64,000 nt of DNA, from NCBI RefSeq assembly GCF_003334785.1, contig NZ_QOWV01000002.1; one strand, given 5' to 3'. The notes beneath the pieces were generated by a model, which searched no databases, had not been told where the DNA came from, and saw nothing but the letters and a program-made list of their open reading frames with translations. Position 1 is the first letter of the stretch, and the number at the start of each line of letters is the position of its first letter. The position numbers were made by a program, and so were the translations under genes. This document shows positions 1 to 6,787 of this stretch, one piece after another. The DNA is from Escherichia coli (GTDB lineage Bacteria > Pseudomonadota > Gammaproteobacteria > Enterobacterales > Enterobacteriaceae).

Positions 1-2600
1 TCAACGTCGGTGCGAAGCTGGTCGTTCTCGGCGGCCCGGCAATGAACATCGGTCTTGGCGGTGGTGCAGCGTCTTCTATGGCGTCTGGTCAGTCTGATGC
101 CGACCTCGACTTTGCTTCCGTACAGCGCGACAACCCGGAGATGGAGCGTCGCTGCCAGGAAGTGATCGACCGTTGCTGGCAGCTTGGTGATGCCAACCCA
201 ATCCTGTTTATCCACGACGTTGGCGCTGGCGGTCTTTCTAACGCCATGCCGGAACTGGTGAGCGACGGCGGGCGCGGCGGTAAATTTGAACTGCGCGAGA
301 TTCTAAGCGACGAACCGGGCATGAGCCCGCTGGAAATCTGGTGTAACGAATCCCAGGAACGCTACGTGCTGGCGGTTGCTGCCGATCAATTACCGCTGTT
401 TGACGAACTGTGTAAGCGTGAGCGCGCACCCTACGCGGTGATTGGTGAAGCGACCGAAGAACTGCATCTTTCTCTGCACGATCGTCATTTTGATAATCAG
501 CCGATCGATCTGCCGCTGGACGTCCTGCTTGGTAAAACGCCGAAGATGACCCGCGATGTACAAACGCTGAAAGCGAAAGGCGACGCGCTGGCCCGTGAAG
601 GGATCACCATTGCAGACGCGGTGAAACGTGTGCTGCATCTGCCGACTGTGGCGGAAAAAACCTTCCTGGTGACCATTGGCGACCGCAGCGTAACCGGCAT
701 GGTAGCGCGCGATCAGATGGTGGGGCCGTGGCAGGTGCCGGTCGCTAACTGCGCGGTCACTACCGCCAGCCTCGACAGCTACTACGGTGAAGCGATGGCG
801 ATTGGCGAGCGTGCGCCGGTTGCGCTGCTGGATTTCGCCGCCTCTGCCCGTCTGGCGGTCGGTGAAGCGTTAACCAACATCGCCGCAACACAAATTGGCG
901 ATATCAAACGCATCAAACTTTCCGCCAACTGGATGGCGGCGGCAGGCCACCCTGGTGAAGATGCGGGCCTGTATGAAGCCGTTAAAGCCGTGGGCGAAGA
1001 GCTTTGTCCGGCGCTGGGCCTGACGATCCCGGTGGGTAAAGACTCCATGTCGATGAAAACCCGCTGGCAGGAAGGTAACGAAGAGCGCGAAATGACGTCG
1101 CCGCTGTCGCTGGTGATTTCTGCATTTGCCCGCGTGGAAGATGTACGTCACACCATCACGCCGCAGCTTTCTACCGAAGATAACGCACTGCTGCTGATTG
1201 ATTTGGGCAAAGGCAATAACGCGCTGGGCGCAACGGCGCTGGCGCAGGTTTATCGTCAGCTTGGCGACAAACCGGCAGATGTACGCGATGTCGCGCAACT
1301 GAAAGGCTTCTATGACGCGATTCAGGCGCTGGTTGCACAGCGTAAGCTGCTGGCGTATCACGACCGCTCTGATGGCGGCCTGCTGGTAACGCTGGCGGAA
1401 ATGGCCTTTGCTGGTCATTGTGGCATTGACGCGGATATCGCCACTCTGGGTGACGATCGCCTGGCGGCGTTGTTTAACGAAGAACTGGGTGCGGTGATTC
1501 AGGTTCGTGCCGCTGACCGTGAAGCGGTCGAGTCCGTACTGGCACTGCATGGGCTTGCTGATTGTGTCCATTATGTAGGGCAGGCGGTTTCCGGTGACCG
1601 TTTTGTGATTACCGCCAACGGGCAGACTGTATTCAGCGAAAGCCGCACCACGTTGCGTGTCTGGTGGGCAGAAACTACCTGGCAGATGCAGCGCCTGCGT
1701 GACAACCCGGAGTGTGCCGATCAGGAGCATCAGGCGAAATCTAACGACGCCGATCCGGGCCTGAATGTAAAACTGTCGTTCGATATCAACGAAGATGTGG
1801 CAGCACCGTATATTGCCACTGGCGCACGTCCGAAAGTTGCCGTACTGCGTGAGCAGGGCGTGAACTCGCATGTTGAAATGGCGGCAGCTTTCCACCGTGC
1901 AGGCTTTGATGCTATCGACGTGCATATGAGTGACCTGCTGACCGGACGCACGGGCCTGGAAGATTTCCACGCCCTGGTCGCGTGCGGTGGTTTCTCCTAC
2001 GGTGATGTGCTGGGTGCCGGTGAAGGTTGGGCGAAGTCAATCCTGTTCAATGACCGTGTACGCGATGAGTTTGCAACCTTCTTCCACCGTCCGCAAACGC
2101 TGGCGCTGGGGGTATGTAACGGTTGCCAGATGATGTCTAATCTGCGTGAACTGATCCCAGGTAGTGAGTTGTGGCCACGTTTTGTGCGCAATACCTCCGA
2201 TCGCTTTGAAGCGCGTTTCAGCCTGGTTGAAGTAACCCAAAGCCCGTCTCTGCTGTTGCAGGGGATGGTGGGCTCGCAAATGCCGATTGCTGTCTCTCAT
2301 GGTGAAGGGCGCGTGGAAGTGCGTGATGCGGCGCATCTGGCGGCACTGGAAAGCAAAGGGCTGGTGGCACTGCGCTATGTCGATAACTTCGGCAAAGTCA
2401 CTGAAACCTACCCGGCTAACCCGAACGGTTCACCGAACGGTATTACGGCAGTCACGACTGAAAGTGGTCGAGTCACCATTATGATGCCGCACCCGGAACG
2501 TGTTTTCCGTACTGTCAGCAACTCCTGGCATCCGGAAAACTGGGGCGAGGATGGCCCATGGATGCGCATTTTCCGCAATGCGCGTAAGCAGTTGGGGTAA
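1..2600 (+). CDS. purL: Phosphoribosylformylglycinamidine synthase, C-terminal ~852 aa (5' end lies upstream of the window)
   Basis: ORF 42..2600 translation recognised as the PurL glutamine amidotransferase/AIRS-like C-terminal region; reading frame stays open to the window edge. Confidence 0.95.
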
Positions 2601-2659
2601 GTCGTCAGCCCATTGGTTTTGCAGCCCGGATGCGGCATTAAGCACCAACCACTATCATA

Positions 2660-2684
2660 AGCTCCCAACTCCGGGAGCTTTTTT
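2660..2684 (+). terminator. Rho-independent terminator after purL
   Basis: Stem agctccc / gggagct with 6-nt loop followed by TTTTTT, 60 nt after the purL stop. Confidence 0.6.
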
Positions 2685-2685
2685 G

Positions 2686-2799
2686 TGTCTGTAAATCACG
2701 ACAATGGGTGGTTTGCCGTGTCGCTTTCTGGCGACACTTAACTCATTGATTTTAATATTATCTAATAAGTTTATCTTAAGTTGTCTCTTTTTAGCGACA
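2686..2799. promoter_or_regulatory. Three TGTC-N10-GACA sites (2686-2703, 2719-2736, 2782-2799) matching GlrR (NtrC-family) activator binding sites
   Basis: Three exact TGTC-N10-GACA inverted repeats read from the sequence, phased about 3 and 6 helical turns apart, 90-200 bp upstream of a sigma54-type promoter; matches the published glmY upstream architecture. Confidence 0.7.
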
Positions 2800-2888
2800 C
2801 AGTGGCTGATTTACATTCAAACAGCGGAGGAGACATAAACCCCTCAAAGCAACGTATAATCAGTACGTTACCAAACTATTTTCTTTAT

Positions 2889-2908
2889 TGGCACAGTTAC
2901 TGCATAAT
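2889..2908 (+). promoter_or_regulatory. sigma54 promoter (-24 TGGCAC, -12 cTGCA) overlapping a sigma70-like -10 (CATAAT)
   Basis: TGGCAC-N5-CTGCA at 2889-2904 with GG/GC spacing typical of RpoN promoters; CATAAT at 2903-2908. Confidence 0.7.
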
Positions 2909-2915
2909 AGTAACC

Positions 2916-3100
2916 AGTGGCTCATTCACCGACTTATGTCAGCCCCTTCGGGACGTGCTACATAAAATACGAATGACGCACAACAAGGTGCCTGCCGTCC
3001 AACTTCTGATATCAGCGTAGCTATATCAACCATCGGGCGAAACGTCGAGTTAGGCACCGCCTTATTCCATAACAAAGCCGGGTAATTCCCGGCTTTGTTG
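2916..3100 (+). ncRNA. glmY: GlmY small RNA (formerly tke1/sroF), regulator of glmS via GlmZ
   Basis: Location between purL and glrK; transcript predicted from sigma54 promoter to hairpin aaagccggg/cccggcttt (3075-3097) plus U-rich tail; about 185 nt, consistent with known GlmY; ends not mapped. Confidence 0.75.
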
Positions 3101-3157
3101 TATCTGAACTTCCCCTCGGTTAGCATCAGGCTATTCGCGTCTGACGAGAGTAACACC

Positions 3158-4585
3158 TTGAAACGCTGGCCCGTTTTTCCCCGCTCATTACGACAACTGG
3201 TAATGCTGGCATTTTTGCTGATTCTGCTGCCCCTGTTGGTGCTGGCATGGCAAGCCTGGCAAAGCCTGAATGCGCTTAGCGATCAGGCGGCGCTGGTTAA
3301 CCGCACTACGCTTATTGATGCCCGGCGCAGTGAAGCGATGACCAACGCGGCGCTGGAGATGGAGCGTAGTTACCGTCAGTATTGCGTGCTGGACGACCCA
3401 ACCCTGGCGAAGGTTTATCAAAGCCAGCGCAAGCGTTACAGCGAAATGCTCGATGCCCACGCAGGCGTGCTGCCGGACGATAAACTCTACCAGGCATTAC
3501 GTCAGGATTTGCACAATCTGGCTCAACTTCAGTGTAACAACAGCGGTCCCGATGCTGCCGCCGCCGCACGTCTTGAAGCCTTTGCCAGTGCCAATACCGA
3601 AATGGTACAGGCCACGCGCACAGTGGTGTTCTCTCGTGGGCAGCAGCTTCAGCGTGAAATCGCCGAACGTGGGCAATATTTTGGTTGGCAATCGCTGGTG
3701 CTATTTCTGGTGAGTCTGGTAATGGTACTGCTTTTCACGCGGATGATTATCGGGCCGGTGAAAAATATCGAGCGCATGATCAACCGTCTGGGGGAAGGGC
3801 GTTCTCTGGGCAATAGCGTCTCGTTCAATGGACCGAGCGAGTTACGCTCGGTTGGGCAACGTATTCTTTGGTTAAGTGAGCGCCTGTCATGGCTGGAATC
3901 CCAACGCCATCAATTTTTAAGACATTTATCTCATGAATTAAAAACGCCACTGGCGAGTATGCGCGAGGGCACTGAATTACTGGCTGACCAGGTTGTCGGG
4001 CCGCTTACGCCAGAGCAAAAAGAGGTGGTGAGCATTCTTGATAGCAGCAGCCGCAATTTGCAAAAACTGATCGAACAACTGCTTGATTACAACCGTAAAC
4101 AGGCGGACAGTGCGGTGGAACTGGAGAATGTTGAGTTAGCACCGCTGGTGGAGACAGTGGTTTCTGCTCATAGCCTGCCCGCACGGGCTAAAATGATGCA
4201 TACCGACGTCGATCTCAAAGCAACAGCTTGCCTGGCGGAGCCAATGCTGCTGATGAGCGTACTGGATAATCTTTACTCCAATGCGGTGCACTACGGGGCT
4301 GAATCCGGTAACATTTGCCTTCGCAGCAGTTTACATGGTGCGCGGGTTTATATTGATGTCATCAATACAGGCACGCCCATTCCGCAAGAGGAACGCGCCA
4401 TGATCTTCGAACCCTTTTTTCAGGGAAGCCACCAGCGAAAAGGGGCGGTGAAGGGCAGCGGTCTGGGATTAAGCATTGCCAGGGATTGTATTCGCCGTAT
4501 GCAAGGGGAACTGTATCTGGTCGACGAGAGCGGGCAAGACGTTTGTTTCCGCATTGAATTACCGTCGTCGAAAAACACGAAATAA
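3158..4585 (+). CDS. glrK: Sensor histidine kinase GlrK (two-component system GlrK/GlrR)
   Basis: ORF 3095..4585; HisKA/HATPase motifs (HELKTPL, GSGLGL); start set at in-frame TTG 3158 to give the 475 aa I recall; ATG 3095 is an alternative that would overlap the glmY terminator. Confidence 0.85.
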   Translation: MKRWPVFPRSLRQLVMLAFLLILLPLLVLAWQAWQSLNALSDQAALVNRTTLIDARRSEAMTNAALEMERSYRQYCVLDDPTLAKVYQSQRKRYSEMLDAHAGVLPDDKLYQALRQDLHNLAQLQCNNSGPDAAAAARLEAFASANTEMVQATRTVVFSRGQQLQREIAERGQYFGWQSLVLFLVSLVMVLLFTRMIIGPVKNIERMINRLGEGRSLGNSVSFNGPSELRSVGQRILWLSERLSWLESQRHQFLRHLSHELKTPLASMREGTELLADQVVGPLTPEQKEVVSILDSSSRNLQKLIEQLLDYNRKQADSAVELENVELAPLVETVVSAHSLPARAKMMHTDVDLKATACLAEPMLLMSVLDNLYSNAVHYGAESGNICLRSSLHGARVYIDVINTGTPIPQEERAMIFEPFFQGSHQRKGAVKGSGLGLSIARDCIRRMQGELYLVDESGQDVCFRIELPSSKNTK

Positions 4586-4749
4586 TGCTAACAGCCTATC
4601 CTATCAGGCTATTTTATTTGTCAGTTCGGCCCCGGGCAGTGCTCGAAATCTTCACGTACGATATGTACGCTCCGGTTTCTCCGCGCTGTCCATGTCCAGA
4701 CTGTCTGCAACAATTACGCCCACTGGGATAGGCTTTAAGTCTGGTGAAT

Positions 4750-5463
4750 ATGCGACACATTTTTCAACGATTATTGCCCCGACGGCTGTGGCTGGCAGGG
4801 CTGCCATGTCTGGCATTGCTGGGTTGCGTGCAGAATCACAATAAGCCAGCCATTGATACGCCAGCAGAAGAAAAAATTCCGGTTTATCAACTGGCTGACT
4901 ATCTTTCTACTGAATGTAGCGACATCTGGGCGCTGCAAGGTAAATCAACCGAAACCAATCCGCTTTACTGGCTGCGGGCGATGGATTGTGCTGATCGTTT
5001 AATGCCTGCGCAGTCGCGTCAGCAAGCTCGCCAATATGACGACGGCAGCTGGCAAAATACCTTTAAACAAGGGATTTTGCTCGCCGACGCCAAAATTACG
5101 CCGTATGAGCGCCGCCAGCTGGTCGCGCGTATTGAAGCGTTAAGTACCGAGATCCCGGCACAGGTTCGCCCACTGTATCAACTCTGGCGCGATGGTCAGG
5201 CGCTGCAACTGCAACTGGCGGAAGAGCGCCAACGTTACAGTAAACTCCAGCAGTCCAGCGACAGCGAGCTGGATACATTGCGCCAGCAACATCACGTTCT
5301 ACAGCAGCAACTGGAACTCACCACCCGCAAGCTGGAAAACCTGACCGATATTGAACGCCAGCTCTCGACCCGCAAACCGGCTGGAAATTTCTCGCCGGAT
5401 ACGCCGCACGAGAGTGAAAAGCCCGCGCCATCCACCCATGAGGTCACTCCTGATGAGCCATAA
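4750..5463 (+). CDS. qseG: Outer-membrane lipoprotein QseG (YfhG)
   Basis: ORF 4744..5463; signal peptide with lipobox LLGC, Gln-rich coiled-coil C-terminus; sits between glrK and glrR; start trimmed to second ATG. Confidence 0.85.
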   Translation: MRHIFQRLLPRRLWLAGLPCLALLGCVQNHNKPAIDTPAEEKIPVYQLADYLSTECSDIWALQGKSTETNPLYWLRAMDCADRLMPAQSRQQARQYDDGSWQNTFKQGILLADAKITPYERRQLVARIEALSTEIPAQVRPLYQLWRDGQALQLQLAEERQRYSKLQQSSDSELDTLRQQHHVLQQQLELTTRKLENLTDIERQLSTRKPAGNFSPDTPHESEKPAPSTHEVTPDEP

Positions 5464-6787
5464 ACCTGCGCATTTATTATTGGTCGATGACGATCCGGGA
5501 TTGCTGAAACTGCTTGGCCTGCGCCTGACCAGCGAAGGCTACAGTGTGGTCACGGCGGAAAGTGGCGCTGAAGGATTACGGGTACTGAATCGCGAAAAAG
5601 TAGATTTAGTCATCAGCGACCTGCGGATGGATGAAATGGACGGTATGCAGCTGTTTGCTGAAATCCAGAAAGTGCAGCCGGGAATGCCGGTAATTATTCT
5701 TACCGCGCATGGTTCTATTCCCGATGCCGTTGCTGCAACACAGCAGGGCGTTTTTAGTTTCCTCACCAAGCCTGTCGACAAAGACGCGCTATATCAGGCA
5801 ATTGACGATGCGCTGGAGCAATCCGCGCCAGCCACCGATGAACGCTGGCGCGAGGCAATTGTCACCCGCAGCCCGCTGATGCTGCGTTTGCTGGAACAGG
5901 CGCGGCTGGTGGCGCAATCAGACGTCAGCGTTTTGATTAACGGTCAGAGCGGCACCGGGAAAGAGATTTTCGCCCAGGCTATCCACAACGCCAGCCCGCG
6001 CAACAGCAAACCATTTATTGCTATTAACTGTGGCGCATTGCCCGAGCAATTGCTGGAGTCGGAGCTGTTTGGTCATGCGCGTGGCGCGTTTACTGGCGCT
6101 GTCAGCAATCGCGAAGGTTTATTCCAGGCGGCGGAAGGCGGAACGCTATTTCTCGATGAAATTGGCGATATGCCTGCGCCGTTACAGGTCAAACTGCTGC
6201 GCGTGTTGCAGGAGCGTAAAGTGCGCCCGCTGGGCAGTAACCGCGATATTGATATCAATGTGCGGATTATTTCTGCCACTCACCGTGATCTGCCAAAAGC
6301 GATGGCGCGCGGGGAATTCCGCGAAGATCTCTATTACCGCCTCAACGTTGTCAGCCTGAAAATTCCGGCACTGGCGGAGCGCACAGAAGACATTCCGCTA
6401 CTGGCAAATCACCTGTTGCGCCAGGCGGCAGAGCGACATAAACCGTTTGTCCGCGCGTTCTCTACCGATGCGATGAAACGCCTGATGACCGCGAGCTGGC
6501 CGGGTAATGTGCGCCAGTTGGTCAACGTGATTGAACAGTGCGTGGCGCTGACCTCATCTCCGGTGATTAGTGATGCGCTGGTGGAGCAGGCGCTGGAGGG
6601 TGAAAATACGGCGCTGCCAACCTTTGTTGAGGCACGTAATCAGTTTGAACTCAACTATTTGCGTAAGCTGCTGCAAATCACCAAAGGCAACGTCACCCAC
6701 GCGGCGAGAATGGCGGGGCGCAACCGGACAGAATTTTATAAACTGCTTTCCCGACACGAGCTGGATGCAAACGATTTCAAGGAATGA
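5453..6787 (+). CDS. glrR: sigma54-dependent response regulator GlrR (YfhA)
   Basis: ORF 5351..6787; receiver domain, AAA+ sigma54-interaction motifs (GESGTGKE, GAFTGA) and C-terminal HTH; start at ATG 5453 (444 aa) overlapping the qseG stop by 11 nt. Confidence 0.9.

Follow-up and report, generated by a model that had tools for sequence, protein, structure and literature searches.

A conserved TTG codon downstream of the glmY terminator is very probably the translation start of glrK (qseE) in Escherichia coli

We analysed a window of 64,000 nucleotides of Escherichia coli DNA (assembly GCF_003334785.1, contig NZ_QOWV01000002.1). Its plus strand carries, in this order, purL, the small RNA gene glmY, glrK (also named qseE and yfhK), qseG and glrR. 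The arrangement glmY-glrK-qseG-glrR 3' of purL was recognised with Rfam in the case of glmY, and from the annotated neighbours in MG1655 and in a strain identical to our query. Every one of the 5426 complete E. coli genomes contains a match to that query (601 bp, window 2800-3400), with identities of 95-100%. The gene agrees in identity, synteny and TTG start with glrK/qseE/yfhK of E. coli K-12 (b2556, NP_417051.2, 475 aa), and the 95 nt 5' of the start codon are identical in the window and in K-12. The two GlrK proteins differ at two residues (N/H and S/N), neither of which bears on the start site, and the K-12 sequence of 475 aa was found in the protein collection as QseE/GlrK. The MG1655 gene (2689671-2691098, 1428 nt) corresponds to window positions 3158-4585. 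PGAP uses the 3158 codon in the strain that is 100% identical over the 601-bp query, in an O157:H7 strain and in a divergent strain. The locus is thus the known E. coli glrK/qseE, of which both the start and the promoter have already been described. The features of the region are as follows.

2916..3099, plus strand: glmY small RNA gene, 184 nt (Rfam RF00128 match at 2916-3063, 146 bits; glmY of MG1655 at 2691157-2691340)
3069..3101, plus strand: intrinsic terminator hairpin of glmY, 14 bp (arms 3069-3082 and 3088-3101, loop 3083-3087)
3083..3085, plus strand: in-frame TAA in the terminator loop that opens the "longest ORF" (read from the sequence)
3095..3100, plus strand: TTG TTG, rejected start candidates (496 and 495 aa), in the U-tract and 3' arm of the terminator and overlapping the -35-like hexamer
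3098..3103, plus strand: putative -35-like hexamer TTGTAT, assigned from its spacing of 17 bp before the -10 hexamer (3/6 consensus), inside the -70..+107 reporter fragment
3121..3126, plus strand: putative -10 hexamer TAGCAT, assigned from TAnnnT conservation, within the conserved CTCRGTTAGCAT (3113-3126)
3133, plus strand: transcription start site (TSS) of glrK-qseG-glrR as given in the literature and consistent with the sequence, an A 7 nt past the -10 hexamer
3146..3150, plus strand: weak Shine-Dalgarno (SD)-like GAGAG, 7 nt before the start (anti-SD duplex -3.4 kcal/mol)
3158..3160, plus strand: TTG initiation codon of glrK/qseE (MG1655 and PGAP annotation; codon periodicity begins here)
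3158..4585, plus strand: glrK/qseE coding sequence, 475 aa, with two transmembrane (TM) segments, HAMP, HisKA (His259) and HATPase_c (Pfam, hydropathy)
3161..3202, plus strand: codons 2-15, KRWPVFPRSLRQLV, short basic cytoplasmic tail before TM1 (entropy by codon phase 0.36/0.18/1.24)
3203..3205, plus strand: ATG at codon 16, disfavoured alternative start (460 aa) taken from public gene calls

On the opposite strand, an antisense ORF at 2926-3156 (76 aa) overlaps glmY and bears no sign of being real.

The ORF list contains a frame of 496 codons at 3095..4585, and the predicted fold confirms that it opens inside the extended terminator of glmY, as a sequence-only reading of this DNA had reported. 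That reading took the codon at 3095 for an ATG; both the sequence and the ORF list give TTG, and a second in-frame TTG follows at 3098. Its description of an in-frame TTG at 3158, 63 nt downstream, preceded by GAGAG and leading to a 475-aa product, agrees with our analysis, in which GAGAG occupies 3146-3150 with a spacing of 7 nt. Its implied preference for this codon over a form with 21 additional residues is correct. The start had been presented there as an open ambiguity, which does not stand: the reference annotation already begins at 3158, and the published TSS places 3095 outside the glrK mRNA. The ATG at 3203 (460 aa), an alternative that public gene calls use at large scale, had been overlooked.

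The protein encoded from 3158 is a membrane-bound histidine kinase. Pfam detected HisKA (6.5e-17), HATPase_c (2e-20) and HAMP (2e-4). A simple Kyte-Doolittle scan, which is not a dedicated topology predictor, gave two hydropathy peaks at approximately 10-40 and 173-205 (475-aa numbering; counted along the 496-aa form, the 19-residue windows begin at 27-40 and 194-205). Together with the Pfam matches, the scan describes two N-terminal TM segments around a periplasmic domain of approximately 140 aa, followed by HAMP. NCBIfam offers no model specific to QseE; its matches were confined to generic histidine-kinase equivalogs, all under their cut-off, and give no placement of the N-terminus. The H-box histidine (SHELKTP) is residue 259 only in the 475-aa numbering, and His259 is the residue cited for QseE/GlrK by Goepel and Goerke (2018; PMC6075780). 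The "start codon" to which these authors refer is therefore the codon at 3158.

Upstream of the gene, the terminator of glmY forms a stem-loop at 3069-3101 (AUAACAAAGCCGGG / UAAUU / CCCGGCUUUGUUGU) with a folding energy of -23.4 kcal/mol and z = -7.6. It has the make-up of an intrinsic terminator, with a GCCGGG/CCCGGC core followed by TTTGTTGT and the annotated 3' end of glmY at 3099, and the extended stem pairs the A-tract with the U-tract. A consensus scanner reported no terminator for glmY, probably because this pairing draws the T-run into the stem. Across an alignment of 56 sequences, 96.7% of the cells were paired and compensatory changes were found in 8 of the 14 pairs (37 cells). None of 500 shuffles reached the observed covariation, and slid registers fell to 38-53% paired.

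The covariation extends to the codon at which the longest frame begins. TTG 3095-3097 pairs with 3075-3073; G3097 changes to A jointly with its partner (CG to UA) in seven sequences, and U3096 changes to G jointly with its partner in two, including one Escherichia lineage in which the codon reads TGG. Positions 3095-3097 are therefore constrained as RNA structure and not as an initiation codon. The in-frame TAA in the loop, which delimits the frame on its 5' side, reads TCA in some E. coli and in E. albertii, and the ORF then extends another 195 nt upstream into glmY. As this stop varies within E. coli, the long frame has no stable boundary.

The promoter of the qseEGF operon has been described in the literature, here by Goepel and Goerke (PMC6075780) citing Reichenbach 2009, so that the TSS is taken from a secondary citation. 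According to this account, a sigma-70 promoter lies directly downstream of glmY and transcription starts 25 bp 5' of the start codon. Counting 25 bp upstream of 3158 leads to 3133, the very position at which the conserved hexamer would place the TSS; TAGCAT and A3133 sit precisely where the published promoter was placed, and the -35 and -10 assignments are our own and putative. The authors further report that a -70..+107 fragment has weak promoter activity in lacZ fusions, that the activity of qseE'-lacZ is unchanged when the whole glmY locus is added upstream, and that RT-PCR reveals virtually no read-through from glmY. These reporter data argue against a coupling of the glmY and qseEGF transcription units. 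QseE itself is described there as barely detectable, and as undetectable in global proteomics. Since the published TSS at 3133 lies 38 nt past 3095, the latter is outside the primary glrK mRNA as defined by this account. TTG 3158 is the first ATG, GTG or TTG triplet in any frame after this TSS. In the supplements of Kim et al. 2012, b2556 appears only in the ortholog table (1428 nt), and no transcription start is listed for it.

We compared the region across 80 loci of Enterobacteriaceae (one genome per species, 77-99% protein identity). The TAnnnT hexamer was identified in 71 of the 80, its distance to the start codon being 30-33 nt in 69, and most of the loci missed by the regular expression carry one as well. 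It reads TAGCAT in 54 loci and TACGCT, TACCCT, TAACCT or similar in the others, and an A is located 7 nt downstream in 64 of the 71. TAGCAT was also found in Serratia, Yersinia-like, Klebsiella and Pantoea-like loci. The only conserved blocks between the terminator and the start are CTCRGTTAGCAT (3113-3126) and GAGA (3146-3149). TTGTAT-17-TAGCAT fits the sigma-70 consensus at 7/12 positions; the scanner threshold is 9/12, and it reported no promoter. We consider the silence of the scanner on both the qseE promoter and the glmY terminator to be a limit of threshold and format, not evidence of absence. We also considered an upstream ORF for translational coupling that would end at a conserved TAA (3151-3153), and rejected it on finding its frame closed by a TGA at 3142-3144.

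The 63 nt at 3095-3157 do not behave as coding DNA. Among the 80 loci, 41 have an in-frame stop within them, and the distance from the terminator to the start falls into all three mod-3 classes (32/26/12). Entropy by codon phase is flat upstream of 3158 (1.46/1.53/1.48 bits) and switches abruptly to 0.36/0.18/1.24 in codons 2-15. Even in the 26 loci in which the upstream frame is open, periodicity is still absent upstream (0.84/0.78/0.80, versus 0.28/0.04/0.84 downstream). Within Escherichia, the variable codons among the 21 upstream comprise five with amino-acid changes and three with synonymous ones; the corresponding counts for the first 100 real codons are 2 and 47 (Fisher p = 2.5e-4 versus upstream). 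Frame, stops and three-base periodicity across the relatives thus all speak against translation of this segment. Codons 1-21, whose conservation at the protein level had been named in the sequence-only reading as the check on its preference for 3158, are not conserved, and that preference stands unrefuted. Simple arithmetic gives a chance of approximately (61/64)^21 = 0.37 for 21 stop-free codons in random sequence, so that the extension is no more than chance would give. The 63-nt extension is a chance open frame through non-coding DNA. It resembles the generic N-terminal over-extension of "longest ORF" calls, in which an upstream in-frame start-type codon lies in non-coding DNA and the frame is open by chance. 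Unlike in the generic case, the extra codons of glrK cross a characterised sRNA terminator and a promoter, which makes the over-extension unusually easy to prove.

At the position homologous to 3158, we found TTG in 74 of the 80 loci, GTG in six and ATG in none. The SD-like element in front of it is weak, as a duplex of -3.4 kcal/mol is equalled by 24%-37% of all TTG triplets in the window; GAGA is conserved nonetheless (entropy 0.29-0.80 bits at -12..-9). DNA from more distant Enterobacterales was reached through a protein search with the N-terminal 118 aa, whose matches were mostly truncated or fragmentary entries, and in these loci, too, the start position is occupied by TTG or GTG. The codon is GTG in two Pantoea-like metagenomic loci, which combine it with a strong AAGGAAG SD and have a TAA in frame at -15. 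An extra in-frame ATG is present at -9 in Serratia and in a Yersinia-like genome (annotated MISLKRW), and likewise in some Buttiauxella three codons upstream (MIS-LKRW and MKL-LNQW forms across the carriers), and Klebsiella has one at -18 that would leave almost no leader. Downstream of the start, FPRSLRQLV is near-invariant and the net charge of the tail is +4 in 72 of the 80 loci. Initiation at 3158 gives GlrK a 14-residue, +4 cytoplasmic tail directly before TM1 and no 21-residue extension.

Weak non-AUG starts occur on low-abundance regulators, for example the UUG of E. coli cya. The TTG/GTG initiator of glrK is kept across genera and its product is reported to be barely detectable, which likens it to weak starts of the cya type and suggests that the TTG may have been selected to keep expression low.

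Four forms of the protein circulate in public collections. By exact look-up, the 475-aa form is found on at least 1000 contigs, the 460-aa form likewise on at least 1000, the 496-aa form on 54 and the 495-aa form on one. Translation from TTG 3095 (or 3098), which would add 21 residues at the N-terminus in the manner of older yfhK annotations, would account for the two longest forms; it yields the longest ORF, it is represented in GenBank by entries such as "Sensor protein yfhK" of Shigella dysenteriae, and its frame is open in 26 of the 80 loci, mostly Escherichia and Citrobacter. This codon is nevertheless upstream of the mapped TSS, and read-through from glmY is put at virtually nil (PMC6075780). 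It is also locked in the -23.4 kcal/mol stem without a free SD: the earlier statement that no SD precedes 3095 proved right, since the sole anti-SD match (-3.9 kcal/mol) relies on a GGG that belongs to the stem. When the stem partner changes, the codon changes with it, to TTA or TGG. The extension behind it is interrupted by stops in 41 of the 80 loci, has no codon periodicity and shows an excess of amino-acid changes, and the length of the spacer is not a multiple of three across taxa. We regard initiation at 3095 or 3098 as extremely improbable. The suffix of NP_417051.2 indicates at least one revision of the K-12 protein record, and the earlier version was presumably the 496-aa form.

The 460-aa form would start only at ATG 3203, with TM1 itself (MLAFLL...), as in many automatic calls. 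Some sources give the name GlrK to this form, and ATG is an intrinsically stronger initiator than TTG. Against it, codons 2-15 vary synonymously and keep their amino acids (0.36/0.18/1.24), and their constant charge and near-invariant FPRSLRQLV fit a cytoplasmic anchor obeying the positive-inside rule. Codon 16 is ATG in 61 of the 80 loci and ACG, ACA, ATC, ATT, GTG or GTT in the remaining 19, and in 14 loci the first in-frame ATG is reached only at codon 39, 46 or 61, past TM1. In E. coli, ATG 3203 has no SD (+0.4 kcal/mol) and lies inside a predicted local stem, and we judge its use as the sole start to be highly improbable. Both codons could also serve, with TTG 3158 as the main start and ATG 3203 giving a minor 460-aa proteoform. 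The two are on the same E. coli mRNA, 45 nt apart, a weak upstream start could let some ribosomes load downstream, and retapamulin profiling has revealed internal in-frame starts across the genome (bioRxiv 10.1101/520783). The lack of an SD before 3203 and the poor conservation of this ATG count against dual initiation as well, which appears very unlikely. We found no N-terminal protein or initiation-profiling data on glrK/qseE/yfhK in the retapamulin and riboproteogenomics papers and supplements consulted. The supposed ambiguity of the start is an artefact of taking the longest ORF; it was settled long ago by the reference annotation, and the comparative evidence presented here concurs fully.

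With high confidence, we thus favour translation of glrK (qseE) from TTG 3158, giving a 475-aa kinase expressed from its own weak sigma-70 promoter. For this proposal, the anatomy, the comparison and the annotation come from the present work, and the TSS, the lack of read-through and the low abundance come from the literature. The promoter would be squeezed between the glmY terminator and the glrK coding sequence, with a -35-like element at 3098-3103 overlapping the U-tract of the terminator, a -10 element at 3121-3126 and transcription from 3133. The mRNA leader would measure 25 nt and contain the weak GAGAG SD-like element and no other start codon. The 63 nt would accordingly be divided between the terminator (3' arm and U-tract), the promoter and the beginning of the 25-nt leader, all non-coding. 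The kinase would be kept scarce by the combination of its weak promoter, weak SD and non-AUG start.

A wider scenario can be sketched tentatively, and we are inclined to doubt it as a whole. The non-AUG initiator and the weak GAGA element might be actively maintained across Enterobacterales so as to limit the kinase to a few copies per cell. Core Enterobacteriaceae might have lost an in-frame ATG three codons upstream, with TTG becoming the sole start, which would amount to a small migration of the start onto what had been a Leu codon. In E. coli, ATG 3203 might in addition give rise to a minor 460-aa proteoform.

The gene order of glmY-qseEGF in Proteus mirabilis is the same as in E. coli (PMC8745638). 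Proteus reportedly has neither a terminator for glmY nor a promoter in the intergenic region, and transcribes qseE together with glmY (PMC8745638). E. coli, unlike Proteus, has both elements, and glmY and qseE are transcribed independently.

Outside annotation hygiene, these results carry little weight. Residue numbering (His259) and the 14-residue positively charged tail before TM1 follow from the correct start, and caution is due with the 460-aa and 496-aa versions in circulation, which have consequences for construct design, N-terminal tagging and topology predictions. The compact layout, with its overlap of U-tract and -35-like element, 25-nt leader and conserved TTG, may be of minor interest for the expression of glmY and qseEGF. 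Two by-products are mildly interesting: the strict conservation of a non-AUG start throughout the family, and the packing of a terminator, a promoter and a 25-nt leader into 59 nt.

Four annotated N-termini are in circulation for glrK (qseE, yfhK), since versions of 460, 475, 495 and 496 aa are all on record in the public protein collection. The 460-aa form, which starts at ATG 3203 (window 3203-3205, codon 16 of the 475-aa frame), was found in at least 1000 public contigs, and the contig count shown for the 475-aa form, which starts at the annotated TTG 3158, is the same (at least 1000). The yfhK versions of 496 aa and 495 aa are old and still present.

Upstream of the start, the motif CTCRGTTAGCAT (window 3113-3126) is kept from Escherichia through Serratia-, Yersinia-like and Pantoea-like genomes, and its distance to the glrK start codon is a constant 30-33 nt (loci L003-L090). 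We read CTCRGTTAGCAT as the putative -10 region of the qseEGF promoter.

An in-frame ATG lies three codons 5' of the conserved glrK TTG (position -9) in Serratia, a Yersinia-like genome and one metagenomic relative (L085, L086 and L089), and the same ATG is found in some Buttiauxella-group loci (L058, L068, L070, L074 and L076). Translation from it would give N-termini reading MIS-LKRW, MII-LKKW and MKL-LNQW, while the close relatives L072 and L082 carry ATA in its place. The start codon of glrK may have shifted in evolution.

The spacing between glmY and glrK is larger in a few relatives. In Citrobacter sp. 18056 (L050, about 1330-1475), judged against the near-identical L051, an insert of ~147 nt separates the conserved -10 hexamer from the glrK Shine-Dalgarno sequence and start, and begins with a hairpin and a T-run. 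The distance from glmY to glrK is also ~150-170 nt above the usual in L060 and L082. L051 itself (CACSKA010000009.1) is titled 'Chryseobacterium sp. 18061', but its glmY-glrK locus is of the typical enterobacterial kind and near-identical to that of Citrobacter sp. 18056, and the assembly is probably mislabelled or contaminated.

In E. coli strain 720632 (L001 4145-4842, NZ_CP025842.1), which is 100% identical to the window across the 601-bp query (window 2800-3400), an IS1 insertion splits qseE, annotated there as two pseudogene pieces. Three further records have glrK called as two consecutive ORFs of ~170-200 aa and ~270-290 aa, which implies a frameshift or sequencing error in the region of the periplasmic domain:

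L085, Serratia rubidaea LR134155.1
L086, VOFL01000010.1
L087, Klebsiella BTWY01000096.1

In the list of longest ORFs, starts are over-extended for both genes 3' of glrK too (window 4744-5463 and 5351-6787), and the annotated qseG shares 11 nt with glrR (5453-5463). These and two features nearer purL are as follows:

4744-5463, plus strand: qseG, longest-ORF start GTG 4744 versus annotated ATG 4750
5351-6787, plus strand: glrR, longest-ORF start TTG 5351 versus annotated ATG 5453
2659-2690: hairpin resembling a terminator, AAGCTCCC...GGGAGCTT and then a T-run, shortly 3' of the purL stop at 2600
2926-3156, minus strand: 76-codon ORF with a GTG start, antisense to both glmY and the spacer that separates it from glrK

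Nothing suggests that the antisense ORF is real. The hairpin at 2659-2690 was the sole terminator returned by the scanner within 2600-3400. The glmY feature between purL and qseE is present in MG1655 but absent from the PGAP-annotated E. coli records L083 and L084, whose users would see a purL-qseE intergenic region that looks empty.
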